Assembly: GCA_020635355.1 (NCBI GenBank)
Contig: JACJZW010000004.1
Coordinates: 129,226-193,225 of the forward strand
Reading direction: 5' to 3'
Source: Flavobacteriales bacterium
Lineage (GTDB): Bacteria > Bacteroidota > Bacteroidia > NS11-12g > UBA9320
Length of the DNA stretch: 64,000 bases
The position numbers were made by a program, and so were the translations under genes. Positions within the stretch are counted from its first letter, which is position 1; every line of letters begins with the position of its first letter. The notes under the pieces were generated by a model that was not told the origin of the DNA, ran no database searches, and saw only the letters and a list, made by a program, of their open reading frames with translations. Shown piece after piece: positions 2,385 through 64,000 of this stretch.

Positions 2385-3383
2385 ATGAGCAACCTTCGAG
2401 CCGCCATTACCGCAGTAAACGGCTATGTTCCCGATGACGAACTTACCAACTTCGATCTCGAAAAAATGGTGGATACAACGGATGAATGGATCCGATCCAG
2501 AACGGGTATTGAAACACGTCACATTCTGAAGGGAGAAGGAAAAGGAGCATCCGATATGGCTGTTCCGGCGGTAGAAGGGCTATTAAAAAAACGAGGAATA
2601 GACGCATCGGAAATTGATCTGCTGATCTGTGCAACGGTAACAGCTGATTACGTTTTTCCCGCAACAGCAAATCTTATTTGTGACCGGATAGGAGCAAAAA
2701 AGGCTTGGGGTTATGATCTTTCTGCTGCATGCTCCGGTTTTTTGTATGCACTGGAAACAGGTCGTAGAATGATCGAATGCGGTCAATACAAGAAAGTAGT
2801 TGTAGTTGGGGTGGATAAAATGTCGTCCATCATTGATTACACCGATCGCACCACCTGTATCATCTTTGGTGATGGTGCGGGCGCCGTCCTTTTAGAACCT
2901 ACTACGGAGGAAGTTGGAATCATAGACAGCATACTCAGATCCGATGGTTCTGGGTTTGATTATCTTCATCAGAAGGCAGGTGGCTCTGTTTTACCTCCAA
3001 CACATGAAACCGTGGACAATCGTCTGCATTACGTGTATCAGGAAGGAACTACTGTATTCAAATTCGCGGTGGTAAACATGGCTGAGGTTAGCTATGAAGT
3101 GATGGAGCGCAATAATTTGACGGGTGATGACATCCAATGGCTGGTGCCTCATCAGGCCAATAAGCGAATTATTGATGCCACAGCCAATCGAATGGGATTG
3201 GATCCTGAACGGGTCATGCTGAACATCCAGCGATATGGAAACACCACTGCAGGAACACTTCCTTTGTGCCTGCACGATTATGAATCTCAACTCAAAAAAG
3301 GAGATAACATCGTACTTGCCGCATTTGGAGGAGGCTTCACTTGGGGGGCGATCTATCTTAAATGGGCGTACGATCCATCCTGA
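2385..3383 (+). CDS. fabH: 3-oxoacyl-ACP synthase III
   Basis: 332 aa; active-site Cys in [11 protein letters not shown] and a FabH-like C-terminal region. Confidence 0.9.
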
Positions 3384-3930: not shown

Positions 3931-5268
3931 ATGTTTAAAAAGATCCTAATTGCCAATCGTGGAGAGATCGCTTTGCGCGTTATCCGAACATGCAAGGAGA
4001 TGGGCATCAAGACTGTTGCTGTTTACTCAACAGCCGACAAGGATAGCATCCACCTGAAATTCGCTGATGAAGCCGTGTGTATTGGTCCGGCAGCAAGTAA
4101 GGACTCCTACCTGAATATGCCGAATATCCTGGCGGCTGCAGAAATAACCAATTCTGACGCCATCCACCCGGGTTATGGTTTCTTATCGGAGAATGCCAAA
4201 TTCTCGGAATTGTGCCGGGATAGTGGCATTAAATTCATCGGTGCTTCACCTGAAATGATCAACTCAATGGGGGACAAGGCTAACGCTAAAGCCACCATGA
4301 AGGAAGCTGGTGTTCCATGTGTTCCTGGATCCGAAGGGTTGTTGGAAAGTTTGGAAGAAGGAATCCAGTTGGCCAACGATTTGGTTGGTTATCCAGTGAT
4401 TCTGAAGGCCACTGCCGGAGGTGGTGGTAGAGGAATGAGAATCATCTGGAACGATGACGAATTCCGCACAGCTTGGGATAGTGCCCGAAAGGAAGCCGCC
4501 GCTGCATTTGGTAACGACGGTATGTACCTGGAAAAATTTGTTCAGGAGCCTCGTCACATTGAAATTCAAATTGCTGGCGATCAATATGGTAAGGTATGTC
4601 ACTTGAGTGAACGCGATTGTTCCATTCAACGCCGTCATCAGAAGCTGATTGAGGAAGCTCCTTCACCGTTCATGACAGATGATCTTCGGAAACGAATGGG
4701 TGAGGCTGCCATCAAAGCTGCAAGTGCCATCAGCTATGAAGGGGTGGGAACGGTTGAGTTTCTGGTTGATAAGGATCGCAATTTCTATTTCATGGAGATG
4801 AACACCCGTATTCAGGTGGAACATCCGGTAACAGAGGAAGTGATCAACCACGATTTGATTCTCGAACAAATCAAACTGGCAGCGGGTATACCTATTACAG
4901 GTAAAAATTATCTGCCTCAAGGACATAGCATCGAATGTAGAATTAACGCCGAGGATCCGTATAATAACTTCAGACCTAGTCCTGGAACCATAACGGTTCT
5001 TCATAAACCAGGTGGGCATGGTGTGAGGGTGGATTCACACATCTACGCAGGATATACCATTCCGCCCAATTACGATTCCATGATTGCCAAACTGATTGTG
5101 AAGGCAAATACGCGCGAAGAAGCCATCAAAAAGATGCACAGAGCGTTGAATGAATTTGTGATTGAGGGTATTAAAACCACCATACCTCTTCAGATTAAAT
5201 TGATGGAGGACGAGGATTTCCAATCCGGAAACTTCACAACCAAATTCATGGAAACGTTTAAGTTCTGA
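3931..5268 (+). CDS. accC: acetyl-CoA carboxylase biotin carboxylase subunit
   Basis: 445 aa with ATP-grasp biotin carboxylase sequence ([20 protein letters not shown]...). Confidence 0.9.
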
Positions 5269-13354: not shown

Positions 13355-14839
13355 ATGAACCGGCTAATTTCACGTAGCACATCAATTTTTCGTTCTTGGG
13401 GCAGTCAATTGACAATCCTGGCAGTGGTTCTCCTCTCCTTATTCCCCTTATTTGGTCATCTGGATTCACAGCCTCTGCGCCTGTGGGATGAATCCCGATT
13501 AGCCCACAATGCCGCTGAGATGTATAACTCAGAATCGTATTTGGTGGTGCAATTTCAAGGTAAACCGGAACATTGGAGCACCAAGCCCCCGTTAATGATC
13601 TGGCTGCAATGTCTGAGTTATAAGGTGGTTGGTGTGAACGAAATGGGAGTGCGTTTACCCTCCGCATTTGCCGGATTGATGTTGATCATGTGCATGGTTT
13701 GGTTTCTTATCAAAATGCGGCTCAGTCCAGCTTGGGCAATCGTTGCCATGATTCTACTTTTATCCATTCGGGGCTTTAACGGAGAACACGGTATTCGATA
13801 CGGAGAATATGATGGGTTATTAGCCCTCTTTGTATTGATTCAACTTACTGGCTTTACATTTTGGCTGATTCACCCATCCGAACCCGATGCCAAATTTCGA
13901 TGGTTGTTCTATCTGGGAATGGTGGGTGCCGTGTGGACAAAGGGGATTGCCGGATTGTTACTCGCGCCGGTTTACCTGTTTTGGATGATCCGGATGTTAG
14001 GCTGGAGAGAATTAGTCAAATTGATTCCGGAATGGTGTGTCATTTCCATTCTACTTTTTGGCTACTACCCCATTCGGGAGTTATTGGATCCCGGCTATCT
14101 GAAGGCGGTTTGGAATAACGAAATTTCCCAACGGTTTACGGGTAATCTGGAGAACCACCGGGAAGAATGGACGTATTATTTTCATGAATTTCATCATCAA
14201 ACCTCCGGGAGTTGGATAATCATGCTGCTGATTATTACTCTTGGAATATATTACTCCAATAGTCCATTACGGCGGGTACTGATTTTCTTGTCCAGTGCTG
14301 CGTTAATTTTGTTTGTCATACTAAATCTGGCATCCACCAAGATTTATTGGTACCTATTGCCGATATATCCTATCCTCGTTTTAACCACCGTTTTGGTTGT
14401 TTCAAGGGGTCTTCAAACGGTAACCTCAACAAAAAGAAAGGTCGTAAAATGGGGGGTGTACGTTCTTATTGGAGCGGTATCGAGTGTTTTATACGGTCGA
14501 TTGATCATCTCAACTTCCCACATAACCGCCCATGTACCTGGCGATCATGGATTTTATGAAGTCACCAATTTTATACGATCTCAGCTTGGATCAAAGGATA
14601 CACTGCATTGGACGTTCATTGATACGGATTACAGTGGTCATAATTGGTGGTACATTGATCGTTTAAACGAACAAGGACATGATATGGTGTACGATATTCA
14701 CCTGGATTCAGTTGAAAAAGGGGATATTCTCCTTTTACGTCAAAAGGAAATCAGAGATTCCGTTAAGGTGATGTATCATACGCAAAACGTCTTTAATCAC
14801 ACTGACTATAGCCTGATCAAGTTGTACGATCTCAGATAA
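13355..14839 (+). CDS. polytopic membrane glycosyltransferase (ArnT/PMT-like, GT39/GT83-type)
   Basis: 494 aa with many predicted transmembrane segments; it follows glf and the GT2. Confidence 0.5.
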   Translation: MNRLISRSTSIFRSWGSQLTILAVVLLSLFPLFGHLDSQPLRLWDESRLAHNAAEMYNSESYLVVQFQGKPEHWSTKPPLMIWLQCLSYKVVGVNEMGVRLPSAFAGLMLIMCMVWFLIKMRLSPAWAIVAMILLLSIRGFNGEHGIRYGEYDGLLALFVLIQLTGFTFWLIHPSEPDAKFRWLFYLGMVGAVWTKGIAGLLLAPVYLFWMIRMLGWRELVKLIPEWCVISILLFGYYPIRELLDPGYLKAVWNNEISQRFTGNLENHREEWTYYFHEFHHQTSGSWIIMLLIITLGIYYSNSPLRRVLIFLSSAALILFVILNLASTKIYWYLLPIYPILVLTTVLVVSRGLQTVTSTKRKVVKWGVYVLIGAVSSVLYGRLIISTSHITAHVPGDHGFYEVTNFIRSQLGSKDTLHWTFIDTDYSGHNWWYIDRLNEQGHDMVYDIHLDSVEKGDILLLRQKEIRDSVKVMYHTQNVFNHTDYSLIKLYDLR

Positions 14840-14896
14840 ACCATGACTGATCGTCAGGCTACCTACGTGATTCCGATCATTTCAAAATCTACATTC

Positions 14897-14981
14897 AAAA
14901 ACTTAAACGTTTAAAATTCCCACCCAACGCGGTGAAAAGAGGAATCTGTTGTAATCGTAATTTTCTGAGTTGAGCGATTGC
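14897..14981. repeat. ~85-bp direct repeat, copy A (about 93% identical to copy B at 16971..17055)
   Basis: aaaaacttaaacgtttaaaattcccacccaacgcggtgaaaagaggaatctgttgtaatcgtaattttctgagttgagcgattgc; aligned to copy B by eye, with 6 mismatches. Confidence 0.7.
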
Positions 14982-15266
14982 GCTTAACCACGATAGATGT
15001 ATATTATCATAATCTGTCATAGCGAGCATAGATTGGGATAACCGTTAACCTGGCTCAGTTGAACTGAGAATAGATTTGTCATTTTTTCTATTTTTAAACA
15101 GTTCCAAAAACCGATAAGGCTACTAAAACGTGTAGGTTACACGCGGGCAAAAAGCAAATGATTTAGTTTGAATAAGTTTTTACTTTAGAGCAAAAGAGAT
15201 AAATTTACTTGGTGTTGTTCTGATTTTATTGGCAATGTGCACTCAATTATCAATTTGTAGTTTGGC

Positions 15267-17473: not shown

Positions 17474-17623
17474 TACTTTCGCAGGGCATTAGACAGGGGT
17501 GTCGGACATGAATCCGGCTGAGATTATACCCGTTGAACCTGATGCGGTTCATACCGCCGAAGGGAGTCATTGGAGTGTTCTGCACCGCTTTCCTGCGCGT
17601 ATTTATTATTTATACCCATTGCG

Positions 17624-20080
17624 ATGAACATCAGAAACTCCCTTCTTTTAGTCCTATTTGTTGCGCTGATTGGATCCACCCTTTGTGCCCAACAAGTTGT
17701 GTTTACCCTGGTTGATCGGACAACTAATTTACCTATTGAACATGTTGAGGTTGTTATCATATCGCCCAATAAATCAACTTCAGATCCTGTTGCCAGGTAT
17801 ATCACCAATTCATCCGGAAAGCTCACAGCAAACGTGTCATCGTCCCAACGATATACGGTAATTACACATCATATATCCTACGAGACCGACACCTTTTACT
17901 GGCACAACCAAAACCCGTTCGTGATCCAACTTACACCAACAACGGAGAAAATGGAGGAAGCATTAATTACCGCTGTTCGTCCTTCCAAGGAAGTGCCATC
18001 AACCACCACATTGGTTACCAAGGAGGAGATTGATCGGGTGAATTTTGGTCAGGACATGCCAGTGTTATTATCTCAAACTCCTTCAACCGTCACGAGCAGT
18101 GATGCCGGTTCAGGAGTGGGGTATACCGGTATCCGAATTCGTGGAATAGATCCAACGCGGGTGAATGTGACCATCAACGGCATTCCATTGAATGATGCCG
18201 AGTCCCACGGTGTTTATTGGGTTGACTTGCCCGACTTTGCCAGCAGTTCCAACAGTATTCAGATTCAACGTGGTGTGGGAACCAGTACCAATGGCGCCGG
18301 GGCATTCGGGGCGAGCATTAACATCAAATCAGATCATGTTGAGCGCAATCCGTTCGTAGTAGCTGATGTCGGATATGGGTCATTTAACACAAGAAGAATC
18401 TCAATCCAACAAGGTACTGGCGTATCAAAAACTGGTTGGGGGCTGCAATCCCGGTTGTCCTTGATTCAATCGGACGGCTTTATTGATCGCGCCTCATCGG
18501 ATTTGCGATCGCTTTTTCTGACTGCCGCACATTACGGGAAGCGGGATCTGTTAAAATTCAATGTAATTCTGGGTCACGAACGCACGTATCAAGCCTGGTA
18601 TGGCGTTCCGCAACCCTATTTTAATCAGGATAAGGACGGCACAGAAGCCTTCATGAATGAGTTGTATTTCACTCCGGAAGATCGAGATCACCTATATGCC
18701 AGCAAATACAACCGATACAATCCATATACCTATGAAAATGAAGTTGACAATTACGACCAACATCACTTCCAGGGATTCTATAACCGACGATTAAAAGGAG
18801 GCATTCACTTAAATACAGGTTTACACTACACCAAGGGTTTTGGTTATTATGAGCAGTATCGTCCGGATGATGAGTTTGCCACCTATGGGTGGGATACTGT
18901 AATGCTTGGTGGTGATACCATTAGGTCTGGTGATTTTATCCGACGAAGATGGTTGGATAATGATTTCTATGGAATGATCTTCTCCCTGAACATTCCGGTT
19001 GATCATATAAATCTAATCGCAGGTGGCGGCGTACATCGTTACATCGGCAGGCATTGTGGAGAAGTGATCTGGGCACAATTTGGCTCTGACGGCTTCCTCG
19101 GAGATCGATATTACAACCAGGACGCCAGAAAAGATGATGCCAATCTTTACCTCAAGTTAACCACCAATTACCAGGACCATCTTTTCTTTTATGGCGACAT
19201 GCAGGTCAGAACGGTGACCTATGACCTTGATATGGTGAGTGGACATCTCAATGAACAACTCACATTCTTCAATCCCAAGGCTGGGGCAACGTACGGATGG
19301 GGAGCAAAACGAAATCATACGGCTCATATTATGCTGGCTGTGGCCAACAGGGAACCCGTTCGGGACGATTATGTCTCAGCACCTAATAGTTTCAAACTTC
19401 GACATGAAAACCTTCGGAATCTGGAGGTTGGAAACGAATGGCAATTCCGAAAAGTGACGGGGCGAATCAATGGGTACTACATGTATTACCGATACCAATT
19501 GGTTTTAACAGGAGAGATCAATGATGTGGGCGATTACATCCGAACCAATGTCCCTAAAAGTTATCGGGCCGGGGTAGAAACAGAGGTGGCCTATGAGCCC
19601 AATTCATCCTGGAGGATCACCGCAAATGCCACCTTTAGCCAGAATAAAATTGTTGAATTCACGGAGTATGTGGATGATTGGAGTACGGGTGATCAAGTGG
19701 CGTTTGATCATGTGAAAAGTGATTTAGCCTTTTCCCCGGCGTTGATTGGGTTCGCGTCCATCGAGTATCGGGTTAAACCGCAAATAAATCTGAATCTAAA
19801 TGGGAAATATGTCTCCCAACAATACCTGGATAATAGCCAAAGTGCAGAACGAAGTTTACCTGCCTTCTACGTAACCAACTTTACGGCCTCCAAGGACTGG
19901 GTTCTAAAGAAAGGTACCCAAATTTCATTGGGACTTCAGGTGAATAATTTACTGGATGTGGATTATGCTCCAAATGGGTACACCTTTGGGACCATGGATG
20001 CCGGTGTACGAAAGAGCTACAACTACGTTTACCCGATGGCAGGCAGACACGGGATGATTCGATTAAAAGTTAAAATCTGA
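17624..20080 (+). CDS. TonB-dependent outer-membrane receptor with N-terminal carboxypeptidase-regulatory-like domain
   Basis: Signal peptide MNIRNSLLLVLFVALIGSTLCAQQ, plug and barrel regions, and a C-terminal aromatic-rich beta-barrel end. The ORF-track start at 17570 is probably too early. Confidence 0.8.
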   Translation: MNIRNSLLLVLFVALIGSTLCAQQVVFTLVDRTTNLPIEHVEVVIISPNKSTSDPVARYITNSSGKLTANVSSSQRYTVITHHISYETDTFYWHNQNPFVIQLTPTTEKMEEALITAVRPSKEVPSTTTLVTKEEIDRVNFGQDMPVLLSQTPSTVTSSDAGSGVGYTGIRIRGIDPTRVNVTINGIPLNDAESHGVYWVDLPDFASSSNSIQIQRGVGTSTNGAGAFGASINIKSDHVERNPFVVADVGYGSFNTRRISIQQGTGVSKTGWGLQSRLSLIQSDGFIDRASSDLRSLFLTAAHYGKRDLLKFNVILGHERTYQAWYGVPQPYFNQDKDGTEAFMNELYFTPEDRDHLYASKYNRYNPYTYENEVDNYDQHHFQGFYNRRLKGGIHLNTGLHYTKGFGYYEQYRPDDEFATYGWDTVMLGGDTIRSGDFIRRRWLDNDFYGMIFSLNIPVDHINLIAGGGVHRYIGRHCGEVIWAQFGSDGFLGDRYYNQDARKDDANLYLKLTTNYQDHLFFYGDMQVRTVTYDLDMVSGHLNEQLTFFNPKAGATYGWGAKRNHTAHIMLAVANREPVRDDYVSAPNSFKLRHENLRNLEVGNEWQFRKVTGRINGYYMYYRYQLVLTGEINDVGDYIRTNVPKSYRAGVETEVAYEPNSSWRITANATFSQNKIVEFTEYVDDWSTGDQVAFDHVKSDLAFSPALIGFASIEYRVKPQINLNLNGKYVSQQYLDNSQSAERSLPAFYVTNFTASKDWVLKKGTQISLGLQVNNLLDVDYAPNGYTFGTMDAGVRKSYNYVYPMAGRHGMIRLKVKI

Positions 20081-55171: not shown

Positions 55172-55888
55172 CTACAGATTGAGCGTTGCGTTGTGGAAGA
55201 CGTTTTGAACATCTTCATCTTCCTCCAGCTTCTCGATAAGTTTATTTACCGTTTCGGCTGATTCACCGGAAAGCTCAACAAAGTTGTGAGGGATGCGTTC
55301 CTTATCCACTGATATAATGGTTACGCCCATAGTCTCGAGCATTTTCTGCATGTTGCCAAAATCCGAGAAGGAGGTGTATACCAGGGTCTCATCTTCCTGC
55401 TGCTCAATTTCTTCGAGTCCGCCTTCGATCAGTTCCAGTTCCAGTTCTTCCAGGTCATGGTCAGCGGGATCGATGCGGAAGATGCACTTGCGCTCGAAGA
55501 GGTAATCCAGCGAACCCGACTTGCCCAATTCGGCCTGATTACGGTTGAGGATGGCTCGAATGTTGGCCACTGTTCGATTGGTATTATCCGTAGCCGTTTC
55601 AATCACCACACCCACTCCGGATGGGCCCACAGCCTCGTAAACCACTTCCTCGTAATTACTTGAATCCTTCTCGCTGGCGCGCTTAATTGCGGCTTCCACG
55701 CGGTCTTTGGGCATATTCTCCGACTTGGCATTTTGAATGGCCACGCGGAGGCGGGAATTGTGTTCCGGATCCGGTCCGCCATCTTTAACCGCCATGGCGA
55801 TTTCTTTTCCAATGCGGGTAAAGGTCACGGCCATTTTACCCCATCGTTTCATTTTGCGCTCTTTCCGGAATTCAAATGCTCTTCCCAT
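55172..55888 (-). CDS. YebC/PmpR family protein, second paralog
   Basis: 238 aa, alignable by eye to the 9145..9903 yebC (KDRVEAAIKRAS, TDNTNRTVANIRAI). Confidence 0.8.
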   Translation of the reverse strand: MGRAFEFRKERKMKRWGKMAVTFTRIGKEIAMAVKDGGPDPEHNSRLRVAIQNAKSENMPKDRVEAAIKRASEKDSSNYEEVVYEAVGPSGVGVVIETATDNTNRTVANIRAILNRNQAELGKSGSLDYLFERKCIFRIDPADHDLEELELELIEGGLEEIEQQEDETLVYTSFSDFGNMQKMLETMGVTIISVDKERIPHNFVELSGESAETVNKLIEKLEEDEDVQNVFHNATLNL

Positions 55889-55933
55889 AATGTGTTTTCA
55901 AGTGGTGCAAAATTCGGTGGAAAGTTTGAGAAT

Positions 55934-55972
55934 AGGAATGGGGAATGGGGAATGAGGAATGAGGGATGGGGG
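55934..55972. repeat. heptanucleotide tandem repeat (RGGRATG x5-6), G-tract rich, in yebC-2 promoter region
   Basis: aggaatg gggaatg gggaatg aggaatg agggatg gggg, 46-84 bp upstream of the yebC-2 start codon. Confidence 0.65.
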
Positions 55973-56370
55973 ACGCCTTCGGAGGATTAGAGTTCAGAGT
56001 TTGGAGTTCAGGAATGGGACACCTTCGCTAAGGCTTCGGTGACTGAGAGAAATGACACACCTTCGCTGAAGCTACGGCGTGTGAAAAAAAACCCGGGTCA
56101 TGAAAGAAGTTTGAGTGGTTTAACCCTACTCATTTCTATTGTAGGTTGTAGTAAGCAGCACAACCCGGGTGTTGGCTATGGCACCGCCTCACGGCGGTAT
56201 TCCATTGATCTTCTATGTCTTGAACGTTGAAGCAAATGTGTTTGCACCAATCGTTAAAATTTTTGTCAAAAGTTTGTCGGCTTCAGAAACGGGGCACGAC
56301 AACGCAGATTGAACAGAATTTGAGGGGCAAATCCATCACCTTTCCGGGTGAAGTTGGAACACAATCACGT

Positions 56371-56439
56371 TCACGATTTAAGCGTGCAAAACACGAATTC
56401 TTCAATGAGTTCATGGTATTGGCGTTGAAATTTATTCAT
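56371..56439 (-). pseudogene. 5' remnant of lipoprotein paralog (MNKF... then frameshift/stop after 22 codons)
   Basis: The minus strand reads ATG AAT AAA TTT..., preceded by the same conserved upstream module and hairpin element as the intact paralogs. Confidence 0.4.
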
Positions 56440-56490
56440 TGGTATACAGTCAGATGGTTAAGTTGTTGGTTTAGGATGGTTTGGAATCAT

Positions 56491-56530
56491 CCGTAGACTT
56501 CCTGCCCACGGGGCTAGGCTAAGTCTACGG
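56491..56530. repeat. hairpin repeat element copy 1 (CCGTAGAC-24 nt-GTCTACGG)
   Basis: ccgtagacttcctgcccacggggctaggctaagtctacgg; an 8-bp perfect inverted-repeat stem. Confidence 0.7.
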
Positions 56531-56664
56531 AAGGGTGTCGACTTAAGACTGTTTTATGGAGTTAATTTGGTGCAAGAAACTCGGCGTAGTGTTCCATCCG
56601 CCGAAGAAGGCGAATGGCTAAATCGTTCGTGGATCTTGCTAAAGAGTGGTTAAATCAGCGGATC

Positions 56665-56705
56665 CGTACATATCCTACGCATGGGCTGGAAGCTAAGTCT
56701 CAGGA
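56665..56705. repeat. hairpin repeat element copy 2 (degenerate)
   Basis: ccgtacatatcctacgcatgggctggaagctaagtctcagg. Confidence 0.5.
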
Positions 56706-56736
56706 ACCTGTGGTGCGATTGAAGTCAATGCAGGTT

Positions 56737-56781
56737 TATTCACCCATCAATTCATAATCCTTAGGATTATCCAGGATCGAT
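56737..56781 (-). pseudogene. 3' remnant of lipoprotein paralog (encodes ...SILDNPKDYELMGE*)
   Basis: Near-identical to the 3' ends of the genes ending at 60546 and 62367. Confidence 0.45.
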
Positions 56782-57225
56782 GGTATAGGTTAGTTTTACC
56801 AGACCATATTTCGGTGATAATATTATTAAGCGATTGAGTCTGATTTATTATTGAATATGTATTCAGAGTTACTACGATAGACAGCTGAGACTGTTAAGTA
56901 CCCCTGATATGGTAAATCCTTCTTCATTTGAACACAATCAAATACCGTCCTATCATATAACTGTATCCTTAAACACATTTTTGACTAAAAGAAACCAGAA
57001 CCGTTGGTTAACCATAACCTTTGCTTAACTTTCGAAAAGTGTTGGTCCGTTTTGAACTGAATCAAATCTATGACGTAGGGAGTCCTCTCCTCTTTCATTC
57101 GGAGTTTTTAAAACTTTGTGTACACGTTCTTTACACATTGGTTTTAGACAAGCTTTTACCTCAAATCCAAATTGAATGAACAATCAGTTCTCCCAAAAAA
57201 ATAGGAGGAATTGTCAATATTTCCG

Positions 57226-57417
57226 TTAAACGATGCAGTATCTTGACGAATACAATTCGTCAAAAAGTTCAACTACATCTTGCTCAGTCGGTTGAATCTT
57301 ATGTGACGCAGGTAATACCCAAAATTGTGGAGGCCCGTCATCCACGCCGCAGGAGGAGAAACTGCCAAGACAAAGACTTATGAGGAAGTATAGAATGATA
57401 TGTTGAGTAGAAGACAT
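57226..57417 (-). pseudogene. N-terminal remnant of lipoprotein paralog (63 codons)
   Basis: Translation ...LCLGSFSSCGVDDGPPQFWVLPAS...EQDVVELFDEL matches the SSCGSDENPNNECPPQFFELQPSVEDMIESL region of the intact paralogs. Confidence 0.5.
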
Positions 57418-58290
57418 AGGTAGGTTATGGTTTTTCTAATGCTATAACACAGCGGTTAGAACCAATGCCTGTTCACTTAATCATTTCGTACCCATAATCG
57501 GGATCAAACCAAAAGATCAGAAAAGTCGGCTTTAAGATGGAGTATATCCTCTGCTTCTATAATGATATCTCCGTAAGCTGAAAATTACCCCCCCAAATCG
57601 CGAAAGGTTTGGTTCCTATTGTATGTTGGGGTTATATCCAATGCTAGAATAGTCACCAATTCCAGAAAGACATTGCCTGCAAAATTCACATAGTACAAGT
57701 CTTCGCAAAGAAAACGTAAACTAAAGATTCCTGAGCCCTCATTTAAATTTGTACTTCAAATGGTGAAGAAACCTTCGTATTGTGATAAAGTGCTGTTTTT
57801 CTTTCAATGTGAACTATCTCGTTGATCTCCCTGGAATGGTTGATTTGCTTCGTTCAAGGGTATCTATTTCATTTCTTAACTAAGTAATAGGTTGAGGTGT
57901 CTACAACCATCCCATTTACCTGTCTTTTTTCCAAATACCAGGGAATCTAGGGTATTAAAACATGAAAGTGACAAGTCGGTCAAGTGTATTGGGTTTGAAC
58001 CTTACATAGAAATGTATGATATTTAGTGTGGGATCCTCTTTACAGGGAATGGATTCTAGAAACAAAGATAAAAACAACTGAGTATACAGGTTTTTCATGA
58101 TTTAGGTTGAACCAGAATACTTACGAGTTGTTTTATTGTCCATTGTTTTTTTGGTTGAATTCTCCATTGTTCTGCTGTACCTTTAAAAGTTGGTATGTTT
58201 TACTCAGTATGAAAAATTATAATCAAGGGAGTTAGGGTAGATGTGTTTGGGACGATATGGCACATTTTATAGTGTTGTAGTTTACCTTTT

Positions 58291-58893
58291 GTGCAACTTC
58301 CGTCCTGCACATCAGATGACGGCAAGACGGATTGCGAAAATCTGGAATTTAAATTTCAAGGTACATTGGATGACCTGATTACCGATCTTTTAGTCGGCAT
58401 GCTGTTTGAACGTAGTTTAGATGGCCTGTTGGTTGACACTGTTTCTCTTAAATTGGAATCATTTGAAACCGATTTCATTCATCTTCACCACTGTAATAAT
58501 GCTACCCGTTCGATGGAGTTGAAATGGCTCCAGTACAGGTGGTCAGCGGATTTAGAAGATATATCTCTTGCTTTTATTAAATCGGGATCAACGTCAACAG
58601 ATGCCTTTGCCACCTGGGGGGAACTCGACCTGTATAGTCGAAATTTCTTCCATAAAAGCGGGTATACGATTGTCTTCCAAAAGGATACTTTCTTTGATTG
58701 TAGGAGTTTTGATGATGTGTTGTCTCCGGTCAATAATATTGTGGGTTTAGGGAAGTATTTTGATTCAAATGCCAACGTCCAATTCAAGCCAAACACCTCG
58801 AAGGCCTTTGTATACCTCAAGCGGGAATCCGGACTTGTTTTGCTGAAACGGATAAATCCGGACGGGGTTATAGAATCGTATAAGCGAATTTGA
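58291..58893 (+). pseudogene. lipoprotein-family ORF lacking signal peptide (possible 5'-truncated paralog, GTG start)
   Basis: Begins (V)QLPSCTSDDGKTDCENL, a lipobox with no preceding signal peptide, and resembles LLSCKDDASDTNCEETI of the 59721..60422 gene. There is no ATG; an in-frame stop lies 7 codons upstream. Confidence 0.35.
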
Positions 58894-58966
58894 ACGGTAT
58901 CTCAATTAATTTGCATGAGTTCGAATAATTAGATCCTTGGTTAAATAAGGTTGTTAATTTCGTGTT

Positions 58967-59005
58967 CCGTAGACATCCTACGCACGGGCTGGGCTAAGGC
59001 TACGG
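58967..59005. repeat. hairpin repeat element copy 3
   Basis: ccgtagacatcctacgcacgggctgggctaaggctacgg. Confidence 0.7.
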
Positions 59006-59701
59006 AGAGTTAGAGTGGGATGAGGATAAACGTCTGATTCGAAACATATCCTTATCAAATTTTATATTGAATTGCGTTGAGATGGATGCTCCAACGAGCC
59101 AGGTATTCAATCGGCGTTGCAGAACGTTGTATTGAACAAACATCCCTGCGGATAACCGATTGTTGGGGAAGAAATAATATCTGGGAGAAAGGTTAATGGC
59201 CATCATACTTACGAGCTGACCAGTTCGGTAGTGTACTTGAAGTGGCTCGATGGGGTATTTTATTTCATGCGCGGTTGTCATTGACCTTCTTCCATACGAT
59301 GCCCAGATTGGAATTTTCAGATGTTCCAGAGCATTCAGGGAGTAACCTAAACCAATGAAATGCGTTTTGTAAGCCCACGTCACCGGCCGACTGGTAACTT
59401 TACCATTTGGCCAGTTCTTGTAATAGTTCGTGTTATATAATTCGGAATATTCCTTTTGTCTTATAAGGCAAAAGAACAGCCCATTAGGCAAGTGATACTT
59501 GAATGAGATACCCCGATTGGTCCAGGTTGGGACTGGAGGAACCGAATGCTCAAAAATGGTAGCTAAATCATTGTTGTAGTCTCCGGAGTGAGTTAACAGT
59601 TCGATTTCGAACGAAGTGGTTGATTTTTGTGCCCATAGTATAGTGTTGGAATACATAAATCCAACGAACGCAATTACAAAATGGAGTAGGTAATTGGGCA
59701 T
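59000..59701 (-). CDS. hypothetical secreted protein (Tyr/Asn-rich, possible beta-barrel)
   Basis: Start taken at the signal-peptide-like MPNYLLHFVIAFVGFMYSNTILWAQ; the ORF track extends it to 59773. Confidence 0.45.
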   Translation of the reverse strand: MPNYLLHFVIAFVGFMYSNTILWAQKSTTSFEIELLTHSGDYNNDLATIFEHSVPPVPTWTNRGISFKYHLPNGLFFCLIRQKEYSELYNTNYYKNWPNGKVTSRPVTWAYKTHFIGLGYSLNALEHLKIPIWASYGRRSMTTAHEIKYPIEPLQVHYRTGQLVSMMAINLSPRYYFFPNNRLSAGMFVQYNVLQRRLNTWLVGASISTQFNIKFDKDMFRIRRLSSSHSNSP

Positions 59702-59720
59702 TTTATAGAGGATTGGTTGT

Positions 59721-60422
59721 TCAGTTAATCCGTTCGAGATAAGCTGGTGTTGCATCTTGTTCAACCATCTCAAGATGTATAAGTCCTACCTTGTTGCTAA
59801 AATACCCAGTGATAGTTAAGTTGTTGCCAAGAGGTAAATTATCATATTCCCCCCATTGATTAAGCACAGACATGAAACTCGAGATAGGCCCATTAGACAT
59901 TTTTATACCAAGATAAAATGGATAACACTCCTCGTACACATGGTTGGTTATTACTATGGAAGTGTCTTTTGAAGGCCCAATGTTTCCGGTTTTATAAGTG
60001 TAAAAGTGTGGATATCCGTGGTAGGTTACTATGAACATATGCCAAATATCAGAGGCCATCGCATCAACCTCGAATGAATCAGAACCATCAGTCGAAATGT
60101 ATTTGAAATTTATTCTTTCAACGAACAAAACATCCTTATCCTCGCATTCATGAAGTAACGCTATGGTTCTACTTCTGAATTCAGGAAATGTTTTAGCGCT
60201 AAATACATTTGTAAACTTTATCGTGTCGGTTTTTAAACCGATTATTTTCCTAAATACGAGTGTGTCCTTGAACATCAATGCCGGGATGAGGGTATCTGCA
60301 ATTCGTTCACTAAGCAAAATTGTCTCCTCACAATTTGTGTCGCTTGCATCATCCTTGCAGGATAGGAGGAATGAAGCTAATGCAGCCAAGGAGGCGAGTA
60401 GGATAGGATTTAACTTAAGCAT
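59721..60422 (-). CDS. hypothetical lipoprotein (LLSCKDD lipobox; distant member of the paralog family)
   Basis: Signal peptide + LLSCKDD. The C-terminal ITGYFSNKVGLIHLEM resembles FSGYYKRGVGLLKMTY of the paralogs. Confidence 0.55.
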   Translation of the reverse strand: MLKLNPILLASLAALASFLLSCKDDASDTNCEETILLSERIADTLIPALMFKDTLVFRKIIGLKTDTIKFTNVFSAKTFPEFRSRTIALLHECEDKDVLFVERINFKYISTDGSDSFEVDAMASDIWHMFIVTYHGYPHFYTYKTGNIGPSKDTSIVITNHVYEECYPFYLGIKMSNGPISSFMSVLNQWGEYDNLPLGNNLTITGYFSNKVGLIHLEMVEQDATPAYLERIN

Positions 60423-60478
60423 TCAATTCACAGTCTTCCAAAAATACGTAGATGGTGCAAATGTGCTACAGGCGTGTT

Positions 60479-60521
60479 CCGTTGACATCCTTCGAACGGG
60501 CTGGGCTAATTCTTCGGAACG
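60479..60521. repeat. hairpin repeat element copy 4 (degenerate stem)
   Basis: ccgttgacatccttcgaacgggctgggctaattcttcggaacg; lies 25 bp after the upstream gene stop and 57 bp before the 60422 start. Confidence 0.55.
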
Positions 60522-60545
60522 TGTGGCGGGATTGATCACTGCGGT

Positions 60546-61205
60546 TTATTCACCCATCAACTCATAATCCAACGGATTATCTTCATCCAGGTAGTACGTC
60601 ATTTTGAGTAATCCGACCCCTCTTTTATAATAACCTGAAAAAGGGACATAACCATTCTTAAGATTTAAATCACCAATGGAGTTAAATCCCTCTTTTGATG
60701 AGATAAAGTGTCCCTGAAGTGCTAATATGTTAAAAAGTTTAAAACAATTAGATTCGGTACGATTGTACAACTGTAATTCTGTTAACGAATTGGACCAAAA
60801 AAATGTACTTGCTGTGGTTAGGGCATATGACTTACGTACGACAAAAAGGACTGGTGAGCCTCTATATTGCACCAATTCAACACTAAATGAATCTTCGCCA
60901 TTTTCAGACCGAAAGAATGTACGCAAGCGTTCATAAAAGAGATTTGTCCTCGCACAAGGTGCTTCATCAAATTCAATGGTATCTCTTATTGAACCTGAGT
61001 TGAGGAATAGAACCGTGTCAATTTTGCCGTATTGGGATACCCGATAATAAATTGAATCTCTTGTTTGTAAACTTTCAATTATATCCTGAACGGAAAGATG
61101 AAAACCAAAGAACAGAGGTTGACATTCATTACTGGGAGTTTCATCCGGTCCGCAACTTGGAAGGATCAACGCGAGTCCACAAAGGAGCCATAGAAATTTG
61201 TTCAT
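60546..61205 (-). CDS. hypothetical lipoprotein, paralog A
   Basis: Start placed at MNKFLWLLCGLALILPSCGPDE (signal + lipobox); the ORF track extends 60 codons upstream to 61385. About three-quarters identical by eye to the 62367..63023 product. Confidence 0.6.
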   Translation of the reverse strand: MNKFLWLLCGLALILPSCGPDETPSNECQPLFFGFHLSVQDIIESLQTRDSIYYRVSQYGKIDTVLFLNSGSIRDTIEFDEAPCARTNLFYERLRTFFRSENGEDSFSVELVQYRGSPVLFVVRKSYALTTASTFFWSNSLTELQLYNRTESNCFKLFNILALQGHFISSKEGFNSIGDLNLKNGYVPFSGYYKRGVGLLKMTYYLDEDNPLDYELMGE

Positions 61206-61265
61206 TGGATAGATTGTTAAACAAGTATAGTGTTTACGGTTGGTTAATTGTAGGATTCGGTAATC

Positions 61266-61296
61266 ATCCTCCACACGGGTCGGGCTAAGGCTAAGG
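61266..61296. repeat. hairpin repeat element copy 5 (5'-truncated)
   Basis: atcctccacacgggtcgggctaaggctaagg. Confidence 0.5.
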
Positions 61297-61351
61297 AAAG
61301 TGGGGGAGCAGGAAATAGTAATGCCAGTCATCAGTTGTTCGTATTTTTGGA

Positions 61352-62332
61352 ATGAAAGCGAATCGTCTAATGAGGTTACAGGCATACTACATTCTGATGA
61401 TCACATCAGTGATTTGTTTTCAGCTCCTTTCATGTAAGGATGATTCTAACCTAAATAGCTCCACGTGCACTCCCTTTGACGAACTATATCCTAAATCGGG
61501 TAATTCAGGTAGTACAACCTTTACCTATAGGTACCCGCTCCACTCCAAACCAATGTTTTCCGAATCTCCCTCAGCGAAGTTTTATCTTCTGTTGAATGAT
61601 ACGGTCCAAAGGTATCGTTTGATAGCTATGCGGGACGGAGAATCTGAACGGAGAGAGACTGATCTGACGTTGCCTTATGATGTTCAGATCACAATGAATT
61701 CACGAGAAGAATTTGCCTACATCTTAGTTGGAAGTCTATTTGTTGTGGATACCCTTGGGAGCCCGCTTCATTCGTTCAATGACGAGGGGTATTATAGGTC
61801 TCCATGTTGGTTTGATGATTCAACGATTATTTGTGAATACTCCGAAACCGGTGGCGTACCATACCACACAATAAGGATTCATTTGAATTCAGGGAGAAAG
61901 GACACATTAAATTTTCCTTTCATGAAGGGGAGAATGTCGGTTGATAAACTTCACATTGCCATTGATGTTGATCGCATGGGAGAAGTACTTGCCATTTATG
62001 ACAAAGAGGGTATGCAACGTAAGTTGTTAAAATTTGCAACAGATGACGGACGAAATAACCTGATTGCTTTTGAGTGGTTAAGTTCAAATGAAATCATCTA
62101 CATTCTGGAGTCGGATGGTGTCTTTATGTACGATATAAACACCGACAGACATACCAAATTGCTTTCTCACTGCAGATATGAACGGTATGATGAACTAAGT
62201 GTTGATCCTGAACAAAAACAACTATTATTGATCAAGCGTACAACCAGCTATCTCAGCGAATTTCATCACATCATATCTACAGAGATTTATCATTATAATC
62301 TGCTGTCCAAAGAGTTAAGGAAGGTATTCTAA
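61352..62332 (+). CDS. hypothetical lipoprotein, possible beta-propeller fold (LLSCKDD lipobox)
   Basis: Signal peptide + LLSCKDDSN. A perfect TAnnTTTG-type motif (TATTTTTG) lies 11 bp upstream, so the internal Met at 61370 is an alternative start. Confidence 0.55.
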   Translation: MKANRLMRLQAYYILMITSVICFQLLSCKDDSNLNSSTCTPFDELYPKSGNSGSTTFTYRYPLHSKPMFSESPSAKFYLLLNDTVQRYRLIAMRDGESERRETDLTLPYDVQITMNSREEFAYILVGSLFVVDTLGSPLHSFNDEGYYRSPCWFDDSTIICEYSETGGVPYHTIRIHLNSGRKDTLNFPFMKGRMSVDKLHIAIDVDRMGEVLAIYDKEGMQRKLLKFATDDGRNNLIAFEWLSSNEIIYILESDGVFMYDINTDRHTKLLSHCRYERYDELSVDPEQKQLLLIKRTTSYLSEFHHIISTEIYHYNLLSKELRKVF

Positions 62333-62366
62333 TCATGCGACTATATCCGGAGAATGATCAAGGTTT

Positions 62367-63023
62367 CTAGTCCATCAACTCATAATCCAGCGGATTATCC
62401 TGATCCAGGTAAAATGTCATTTTAAGCAGGCCAACACCCCTTTTGTAATAACCAATAAAAGGGACATAACCTCCTTTGAGATTTAAGTCACCATTGGAGT
62501 TAAATCCCTCTATTGATGAGGTAAAGTGCCCTTGATGTGTTAACATGTTGAAAAGTTTAAAACTATTGGATTCTGTGCGATCGTACAACTCTAAATCTGT
62601 TAATGAATTGGTCCAAAAAAATTGACTTGCCGTGGTTAGAGCATAAGACTTACTTACCACAAAAAGAACAGGTCCGGACTTATCTTGCACCAATTCAACA
62701 CTAAATGAATCTTCGCCATTTTCAGATCGAAAGATTGTCCGAAATCGTTCATAGAATAAATTCTCTTCAGCACAGAACCCATCTGCAAAACTCAAAGTAT
62801 CTCTTTTTGAACCTGAGTTGAGGAATAGAATGGTGTCTGTTTTGCCGTATTGGGAAACACGATAGGCAACGGAATCTCTTGATTCCAAGCTTTCAATCAT
62901 ATCCTCGACAGATGGCTGCAACTCGAAGAATTGAGGGGGGCATTCATTATTTGGATTTTCATCAGACCCGCAACTTGAAAAGATCAACGCGAGTCCACAA
63001 AGGAGCCATGGAATTTTGTTCAT
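62367..63023 (-). CDS. hypothetical lipoprotein, paralog B
   Basis: Start placed at MNKIPWLLCGLALIFSSCGSDE; the ORF track extends it to 63122. Confidence 0.6.
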   Translation of the reverse strand: MNKIPWLLCGLALIFSSCGSDENPNNECPPQFFELQPSVEDMIESLESRDSVAYRVSQYGKTDTILFLNSGSKRDTLSFADGFCAEENLFYERFRTIFRSENGEDSFSVELVQDKSGPVLFVVSKSYALTTASQFFWTNSLTDLELYDRTESNSFKLFNMLTHQGHFTSSIEGFNSNGDLNLKGGYVPFIGYYKRGVGLLKMTFYLDQDNPLDYELMD

Positions 63024-63103
63024 TGGATAGATTGTTAAACAAGTATAGGGTTTACGGGTGGTTAATGGTAGGATTCGGTAATCATGCTTCGCGCAGGCAA
63101 GTT

Positions 63104-63142
63104 CCGTAGACATCCTGCGCACGGGCTGGGCTAAGTCTACGG
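63104..63142. repeat. hairpin repeat element copy 6 (best copy)
   Basis: ccgtagacatcctgcgcacgggctgggctaagtctacgg. Confidence 0.7.
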
Positions 63143-63429
63143 AACGTTTGAATTGCCATGATGGGCTGATATAAATCAGGTTGACGCATCCGGTTTGGTA
63201 TTTATACTTTGAATAACTAAACTTGGATTCTAAAGCGAAGTCGACTTATGAACGTCTCTTTAAGCAGGAGAAAGTGGTGCATCGCTGGTAGGTTGAACTA
63301 AAAGTATTACTAGCCGATCAGGTTGTGTAGGATGATCCACCTTTGCGGTTAACGCATAGGTCCCGATCAGTCGGTTTATTACATCGAACATGCCCATCAC
63401 AGACCTGCTGCTGTTGTTATCAGATAGTC

Positions 63430-64000
63430 ATGACGCATCTTTTTCCGACCCTTGGAAATCGGGTTTTCCATTTAACCACGGGTGTTTTTATCTTTTTAAT
63501 GGGGTATAGTAATCCCATCCAGGCACAACAGGTAGAATTACCGGAAGAGGCTTCTCAAAGTTGGTGGGAATCTGTGACCAAAGACATCGAAAGCCGGGAG
63601 TATCATTTCTCACAAATGGACGAGCAGCATTACCGTTGCCCCAATCGGGCCAACAACCTGTTGGCCGTGGTTGAGCCAGGAAACTTAACACTGAGTCCGC
63701 ACCGGGATTCAACGGCTAACTGGTCGTTAAGACTGGACTTGAACGGGATTTATGCCGATGGCATCAGACTGTATGGCACGGAGAATATTCCGGTGAATAA
63801 GGTGGTTATGGAGGATGCGCGACTTGTTTTTGATCATACATACGTGCAGGAAGAGTACATCAACACCAAAGAAGGTGTGCGACAAAACTTCATCTTGAAG
63901 CATGGTCCGACCGATGCAACCGAGATTGAAGTGCGATTAAACGTTGCCGGTCTTATCCCCAACAAGGTACATGATACCGAAATCCATTTGTGCCAGCGCC
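63430..64000 (+). CDS. secreted protein, N-terminal part (continues beyond window end)
   Basis: ATG at 63430 opens a frame with no stop through 64000: MTHLFPTLGNRVFHLTTGVFIFLMGYSNPIQAQQVELPEEASQSWWESVTKDIESREYHF... It is absent from the ORF track because no stop falls inside the window. Confidence 0.5.
   Translation, partial: MTHLFPTLGNRVFHLTTGVFIFLMGYSNPIQAQQVELPEEASQSWWESVTKDIESREYHFSQMDEQHYRCPNRANNLLAVVEPGNLTLSPHRDSTANWSLRLDLNGIYADGIRLYGTENIPVNKVVMEDARLVFDHTYVQEEYINTKEGVRQNFILKHGPTDATEIEVRLNVAGLIPNKVHDTEIHLCQR

Follow-up and report, generated by a model that had tools for sequence, protein, structure and literature searches.

Near the right-hand end of a 64,000-nt stretch of the Flavobacteriales bacterium assembly GCA_020635355.1 (contig JACJZW010000004.1, positions 129,226 to 193,225; hereafter “the window,” numbered from its first letter), the same arrangement of a hairpin element, a short spacer and a start codon stands before more than one gene for a predicted lipoprotein. 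A first-pass annotation had read this arrangement as a promoter module that was copied at least three times, at 61205, 63023 and 56439, of the kind seen at phase-variable or recombination-switched loci. We conclude, with good confidence, that it is an ordinary feature with two components, a tandem duplication of two lipoprotein genes (A and B) and a short repeat of the repetitive extragenic palindrome (REP) type that belongs to a nearby REP-associated tyrosine transposase (RAYT), and that it is not a switchable promoter.

The window was compared both with a sister contig, JAGQVZ010000001.1 (L001), which runs 7.8 kb past the window's right end, and with an independent metagenome contig (L003). 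Wherever they were compared, the window and L001 are 100% identical, except for a stretch of 2.2 kb at 56222-58398, and the modules of A and B are 100% identical in all three sequences, with no differences in orientation. The genes concerned lie on the minus strand; gene E, which lies between the A and B units, is on the opposite strand.

The hairpin repeat and its transposase

The hairpin element is a repeat family. An nhmmer profile built from its copies, together with pattern scans across the whole window, found six full copies and one half copy, all within 56.4-63.2 kb and all in one orientation, whereas the rest of the window (56 kb) has none; the hairpin of the first-pass annotation is thus confirmed as a repeat. 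The consensus, GTTCCGTAGAC-ATCCTnCGCACGGGCTGGGCTAA-GTCTACGGAAC, is about 45 nt long, with an 11-bp stem, a 23-nt loop and GTAG/CTAC in the arms. The six full copies of the window and the two that flank the RAYT gene are all intergenic, one of them overlapping a stop codon by a few nucleotides, and their settings in the window are divergent (B/FG-GAP and A/E), co-directional (A to C), convergent (D/F) and downstream of G; occurring as it does in intergenic regions of all three kinds, the hairpin is not tied to gene starts.

The copy upstream of B has a perfect 11-bp stem (-21.4 kcal/mol, z = -2.8) and, together with the half copy beside it, makes up a composite unit of the kind that is also present on both flanks of the RAYT gene. 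Only three copies form well-folding hairpins (z = -2.8, -5.0, and -1.4); the others, including A's, have lost pairing without compensation, and the stem of the copy between A and C is weakened by two non-compensated changes. Over the eight copies the stem is 81% paired, versus 30-41% in a control in which the 3' partners were slid, and the RAYT 3' copy carries one clean compensatory change (A-U to U-A). A search of the whole window with Rfam at gathering thresholds found nothing at the hairpins (the only match was a thiamine pyrophosphate riboswitch, described below), and a terminator scan found no copy to be terminator-like, with no T-run.

Past the window's right end, L001 encodes an FG-GAP protein of 1402 aa, followed by a Y1 transposase of 183 aa (L001 3340-3891), whose gene lies about 3.9-4.5 kb beyond the window. 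At 98.2 bits this transposase passes the NCBIfam model NF047646, “REP-associated tyrosine transposase” (cutoff 80), whereas at 29.7 bits it stays below the cutoff (55) of the IS200 equivalog model NF033573; its HUH motif is NHVH and its tyrosine motif is YLHNNP. The gene is flanked on both sides by the repeat seen in the window, with full copies at L001 4003-4055 and 3165-3218 and half copies at 4059-4085 and 3227-3248. The layout of these flanks is that found upstream of B: a left flank (GGTTTGGAAT..), an extra 5' arm, a linker of about 13-16 nt (..CGCAGGCAAG) and then the full hairpin. The same flanking of the RAYT gene by its cognate repeat on both sides occurs in five independent metagenome contigs.

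The RAYT has 1384 homologues at E <= 1e-10; among those listed with a source name, nearly all come from Bacteroidota metagenome-assembled genomes (MAGs) or isolates, and many have been named RayT by JGI. Three homologues on long contigs (54-59% identity) have structured repeats of their own on both sides, and the hairpin arms at the L013/L014 homologue, TCCGTAGAG/CTCTACGGA, are almost those of the present element. A phmmer comparison of the RAYT with PDB sequences returned nothing at E <= 0.01.

Duplication of genes A and B

A and B are tandem paralogues with 76% amino-acid identity. The duplication has a spacing of 1818 bp, covers the whole gene and shows 83% identity in DNA; synonymous divergence (dS) between the two genes is 0.64 overall and 0.71 after codon 20, and with a nonsynonymous to synonymous ratio (dN/dS) of 0.23 both genes look functional and under purifying selection. 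When the upstream regions are aligned precisely, the similarity between A and B holds: the spacer from ATG to repeat is identical at 48 of 51 positions, a score reached by none of 500 shuffles, and the half-arm “ggattcggtaatcat” (13-15 nt) is identical in the two copies. In a sliding comparison the block from -62 to +40 is 90-97% identical, versus 80% nucleotide identity over the aligned codons of the coding sequence (P = 0.005 for three or fewer mismatches in 51). The A/B module is real, and it is better conserved than the neutral sites of the same genes; this conservation may reflect selection on the promoter/leader and signal peptide or a recent patch of gene conversion.

The duplication took along about 110 nt of upstream sequence, made up of the spacer and the hairpin repeat, and to this extent the earlier suggestion that a promoter/leader was duplicated with the genes stands. 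A role of the hairpin as part of a promoter unit, however, is not supported: it also lies between the convergent genes D and F, downstream of A and of G, and on both sides of the RAYT gene.

As to the promoter itself, the near -7 box that had been pointed out is present in both genes: TATACTTG, one mismatch from TAnnTTTG, lies at -24 to -17 of A and of B, and gene C has an exact TAnnTTTG (TATTTTTG) at 60439-60446, which is the same position (-24 to -17). Such a box is frequent by chance, a match with at most one mismatch occurring in 45% of random 120-mers of the window, and a scan for sigma-70 promoters gave results at chance level. Judging from the sequence, the true A/B promoter would most likely lie in the spacer, with the -7-like box at -24 to -17.

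The third module does not survive alignment. The 50-nt spacer at 56439 gives 32 matches over 54-55 columns against A and B, scores that 61 and 33 of 500 shuffles reached, respectively. The 16-mer around its ATG (similarity to ATGAAyAAATTT) also matches inside gene C at 60103, so that the similarity of the start is at chance level as well, and translation comparison found no paralogue coding sequence after the 56439 start. In L001, a 2-nt insertion changes ATGAATAAATTT to ATGTGAATAAATTT, and the “MNKF start” there reads ATG-TGA. The true likeness of this region to A and B consists of the hairpin repeat and its left flank, “ggtttggaat”; the third module is a further REP copy followed by non-coding, error-ridden sequence and is not a copy of the module. 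The real third paralogue of A and B is gene G (42% identical to A/B); its window version (56739-57360) is frameshifted, while its L001 version (14405-15076) is intact. Its start in L001 lies 22 nt past gene H, and no hairpin or spacer module precedes it. The claim that the unit was copied at least three times thus falls away, what was counted as the third copy being a hairpin repeat with chance similarity in a degraded stretch.

That stretch (56222-58398) differs from L001 by 172 edits, mostly indels of 1-3 nt but also swaps of adjacent bases. In the window it has no long open reading frames (ORFs), whereas in its L001 counterpart two lipoprotein genes, G (223 aa) and H (221 aa), are intact and stand alongside the N-terminal part of F, which is longer there and has a signal-peptide end. 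The two hairpin copies from this stretch align without gaps to the family consensus in their L001 version. The window version is degraded, most simply by uncorrected assembly error, and resembles a piece of assembly that is unpolished or of low quality more than a case of real pseudogenisation.

One further likeness within the family concerns 3' ends: over 111 nt, comprising the final ~35 nt of coding sequence, a short 3' flank and the REP (window 60520-60581 versus 56707-56771, L001 11240-11348 versus 15040-15148), A and G share 84% identity, while the two genes are otherwise about 55% identical in DNA. This patch is possibly a gene-conversion tract, or the REP may have been copied together with flanking DNA.

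The lipoprotein island

The coordinates of the main features are collected in the table.

Table. Repeat copies, spacers, genes and sequence quality at the right-hand end of the window (positions are those of the window).
Feature	Position	Strand	Basis or remark
Full REP-like hairpin, 78 nt upstream of B, divergent B/FG-GAP region	63101..63145	+	Best nhmmer match
Degenerate extra 5' arm attcggtaatcat (63073-63085) and ~15-nt linker gcttcgcgcaggcaa	63073..63100	+	nhmmer half copy 63069-63094; alignment with L001 4091-3994 and 3254-3157
Conserved spacer, putative promoter-leader, gene B	63024..63072	-	TATACTTG at 63040-63047; function predicted
Gene B, predicted lipoprotein, 218 aa, N-terminus MNKIPWLLCGLALIFSSC	62367..63023	-	ORF and translation
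Gene E, predicted lipoprotein, 326 aa, between A and B units	61352..62332	+	ORF and translation
Degenerate REP upstream of A, 146-nt divergent A/E region	61255..61299	+	z = -0.85, folding not above background
Conserved spacer, putative promoter-leader, gene A	61206..61254	-	TATACTTG at 61222-61229; function predicted
Gene A, predicted lipoprotein, 219 aa, N-terminus MNKFLWLLCGLALILPSC	60546..61205	-	ORF and translation
REP, co-directional A/C region, 27 nt from A stop and 54 nt from C start	60476..60520	+	nhmmer
Gene C, lipoprotein, 233 aa	59721..60422	-	Distant A/B paralogue, ~22% identity
REP between convergent D and F	58964..59008	+	nhmmer and pattern scan
Degraded/low-quality stretch	56222..58398	.	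172 differences from L001
REP just downstream of paralogue G	56661..56707	+	nhmmer
REP before the “remnant start,” best-folding copy	56488..56534	+	-27 kcal/mol, z = -5.0
“MNKF” pseudo-start, ATGAATAAATTT, then 22-codon ORF without signal peptide	56425..56439	-	Not a gene start

A and B have N-termini of the lipoprotein type (MNK..LLCGLALI..SC). D, E and F are further small orphan proteins, with lipoprotein-like signal sequences in E and F as well; D and F are convergent, with stops at 59000 and 58893, respectively. Most of the island lipoproteins have acidic residues after the lipobox Cys (C-K-D-D, C-G-S-D-E, C-T-S-D-D), which we take to resemble the export signal of Bacteroidota surface lipoproteins. 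A Pfam scan of six island proteins (A-F) found no family at or above the curated cutoff, the best match of gene B (E = 0.07) lying under it, and a search of 5.8 billion proteins with gene B as the query found only A and B themselves, in two Bacteroidota/Flavobacteriales MAGs.

The starts of A and B are annotated in more than one way. A database entry for gene A (P0002, 279 aa) begins at an upstream ATG at 61385, runs through the REP and overlaps the opposite-strand gene E, and the ORF list holds a 251-aa GTG form of B (62367-63122, minus strand). We rejected these longer forms, as the lipoprotein signal peptide begins at the MNK start and, as worked out by hand, all three A/B spacer differences would be non-synonymous in that frame; the signal peptides at 61205 and 63023 point to the shorter starts as the true ones, and the P0002 start at 61385 was probably mis-called. 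The sister contig, for its part, calls B and E too short (173 and 136 aa).

The island (56000-64000) has a GC content of 0.40-0.41 versus 0.42-0.48 elsewhere in the window, and its borders are yebC on one side and the FG-GAP, RAYT and tRNA-Met genes on the other; it may have been horizontally acquired or be evolving fast. In the non-coding sequence next to yebC (55930-56090) there is a tandem array of the heptamer GGAATGG (55935-55971), followed by two direct repeats of about 38 nt (56010-56085) with small hairpins of the “CACCTTCGCTAAGGCTTCGGTG” type, which bear a weak likeness to the right half of the REP (nhmmer E = 1.3).

On the other side, the tRNA-Met gene lies at L001 2698-2770, and a second copy of its 3' end, with the upstream stem-loop (aaaaaaaaggcccttcaacgaagagcctttt agttgcgggaacaggactcgaa), brackets an 84-aa GIY-YIG gene (L001 2815-3069); the whole region (L001 2698-3160) is about 4.7-5.1 kb beyond the window's right end. 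In one independent metagenome contig (L006), as judged from its gene calls, the gap between the RAYT and CHAT genes is shorter and holds no gene. On this evidence, the tRNA 3' end would be the insertion site of a small polymorphic GIY-YIG element. From the short RAYT contigs that end just after the 3' REP we drew no conclusion on repeat copy number, as the duplicated 3' end of tRNA-Met explains such breaks equally well. Far from the island, the TPP riboswitch (Rfam RF00059, 65.8 bits) lies at 17485-17582 on the plus strand and overlaps the 5' end of an ORF with a TTG start (17570-20080); it is effectively just upstream of that ORF.

Origin of the module and likeness to known systems

How the present arrangement came about can be proposed as follows. 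The RAYT (HUH/Y1) would have seeded copies of its REP-type repeat, in a single orientation, into the intergenic regions of the adjacent 12-kb low-GC island of orphan lipoproteins. By analogy with IS608 and the E. coli TnpA-REP, the RAYT may recognise the hairpin, with GTAG/CTAC in its arms, as folded single-stranded DNA, cutting and rejoining one strand beside it during replication, at the fork; such action on one strand at replication would explain the uniform orientation of the copies. The plus strand has a positive GC skew throughout the window. The segment that was duplicated to give A and B ran from stop codon through start codon and ~50-nt spacer and included a REP that was already there, and with REP and spacer inside the duplicated segment the combination of hairpin, spacer and MNK start occurs twice. 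In the A copy, about 29 nt between two direct copies of the 5' arm would later have been lost. Both A's copy and the copy at 56488 look like products of such a deletion, and the 5' arm of A's copy is exactly the degenerate sequence (attcggtaatcat) of B's half copy, which fits a deletion between direct arms.

Several points weigh against this account. Classic REPINs and BIMEs are inverted pairs, and genome-wide dispersal is a hallmark of REPs. Here, all copies are direct, with a directly repeated 5' arm as the sole doublet, and in the ~72 kb examined all eight copies cluster no more than 12 kb from the RAYT, the other 56 kb of the window being free of them. An exact-pattern scan (loop, arm) of species-representative genomes gave 0 matches, and a metagenome scan (arm and start of the loop) gave a single match, inside a coding start and with no hairpin, that we put down to chance. 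The GTAG is inside the stem and not at its foot, and the conserved loop of 23 nt is unusually long. Covariation in the stem is weak (the observed score was reached by 24 of 500 shuffles), and the -7-like box of A and B adds no statistical weight.

That the genes of a phase-variable or recombination-switched surface-protein locus here share the module as a mobile regulatory unit, with an invertible promoter or cassette switching, strikes us as very improbable. This reading has in its favor that A and B are paralogous predicted surface lipoproteins with a highly conserved 5' block of about 100 nt, much as the invertible-promoter surface loci of Bacteroidota combine paralogous surface-protein genes with a common conserved upstream region, and that the 3' patch shared by A and G suggests local recombination or gene conversion. 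Unlike at those loci, however, no inverted repeats bracket the module, the sole inverted repeat being the 11-bp hairpin itself; precomputed Pfam matches show no tyrosine or serine recombinase among the genes called within ~10 kb; and neither module differs among the window, L001 and L003, so that orientation variants are absent from the compared assemblies. A tandem-repeat scan of 55800-64000, which was not tuned to homopolymer tracts, reported no simple sequence repeat in or near the A/B modules, nor is any variable repeat of this kind seen. The purifying selection on two functional-looking genes and the loss of the third copy count against switching as well. An integron-like cassette array, in which the hairpins would be attC-type sites between promoterless cassettes, is more improbable still: imperfect palindromes in the same orientation do lie between small orphan genes, mostly on one strand, as they do in attC arrays and CALINs, but there is no integron integrase in the 20 kb around the island or in L001, the 45-nt element is too short and ends in GTT...AAC (GTTCC...GGAAC) rather than in the R''/R' core sites RYYYAAC...GTTRRRY, its copies flank the RAYT gene, with which it is associated instead, and several of the “cassettes” would hold two genes or genes on opposite strands.

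Two other possibilities are unlikely. The hairpin could be a host cis-element (for example one that stabilises or terminates RNA, or an operator bound by a regulator that recognises palindromes) that was spread by gene duplication only, without transposition. Its copies are confined to the lipoprotein island, loop and arms are equally conserved, four copies stand at similar distances (49-54 nt) from the next ATG, and three copies lie 15-30 nt after the stops of A, D and G, a common site of REPs and terminators (PMC3733652). Yet the composite element flanks a gene with no relation to the lipoproteins, that of the RAYT, on either side; copies occur in divergent and convergent regions beside non-paralogous genes (E, F and FG-GAP); no copy has the T-run or was called terminator-like; and in half of the copies the stem is lost, with no compensating changes. 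A cis-acting role would in any case be compatible with secondary co-option of a REP and is hence no strict alternative. It is likewise conceivable, if doubtful, that the REP half-arm and the ~50-nt spacer form a portable promoter/leader and that REP-guided recombination or gene conversion near the RAYT homogenises and re-assorts the 5' and 3' ends of the lipoprotein genes; the high identity of the -62 to +40 block against a dS of ~0.7 elsewhere and the A/G patch would be compatible with this. If it were true, the RAYT and its REPs would be a local engine of surface-protein diversification and not a passive passenger.

With the tandem duplication and the RAYT's repeat as the preferred explanation, the main gain is that a false lead is removed: the “triplicated promoter module” comes down to a tandem duplication plus a REP, one of the three copies being an artefact of poor-quality assembly. 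To a class that has so far been described only briefly, the locus also adds a clear case, in which a Bacteroidota RAYT is accompanied by its own, atypical hairpin. In addition, A and B at their 5' ends, and A and G at their 3' ends, show patches of high identity, a hint that tracts of recombination or gene conversion in a fast-evolving lipoprotein family may be marked by REP copies.

Among known mobile systems, the IS200/IS605 elements with their PATEs and MITEs share with this locus a Y1 transposase and subterminal hairpins in the same orientation on both sides, and by analogy their orientation-biased, single-strand chemistry could apply here. They differ in that the present protein fails the IS200 model and passes the RAYT model, that one copy of the gene is seen, and that the hairpins also occur alone, apart from the gene. 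The closer likeness is to the REP/RAYT systems (REPtrons, the E. coli TnpA-REP, the REPINs of P. fluorescens and the GTAG REPs), in which a single RAYT-type Y1 HUH gene is flanked by a short palindrome that is also found in nearby intergenic regions, often just downstream of genes, with GTAG in its 5' arm. Unlike those, the present copies are all direct, with no inverted REPIN or BIME pairs, the GTAG lies within the 11-bp stem, a long loop is conserved, there is an extra direct 5' arm, and the element is documented as a local cluster and not by abundance genome-wide. GTAG-tagged REPs, REPtrons, REP clusters that drag flanking DNA along and REPs located mainly downstream of genes have all been described (Di Nocera et al., 2013, PMC3733652); that survey did not report GTAG REPs in Bacteroidetes, and it found that singletons predominate in some REP families, so that inverted doublets are not required.

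For Bacteroidetes, the TnpA-REP subclasses 2.6 and 2.4 have genes with either “atypical secondary structures” on their flanks, of which further copies occur elsewhere, or “double foot” GTAG...CTAC REPs; the latter are those of subclass 2.4 and bear GT[AG]G at one end and its complement at the other (Quentin et al., 2018, PMC6006769). The present RAYT resembles subclasses 2.6 (Bertels group 5) and 2.4 (group 4) in phylum, in length (183 aa versus a mean of 179 or 194) and in its motifs (NHVH and YLHNNP, for NH[LIV]H and YI(H/x)NNP-like). It departs from them in a W-motif that reads LWYQ and not WQ, and its repeat sequence is absent from the other genomes and metagenomes searched. The present element thus fits the known Bacteroidota REP/RAYT class, and its particulars are the long loop, the internal GTAG, the extra arm, the all-direct copies and the tight clustering by the RAYT.

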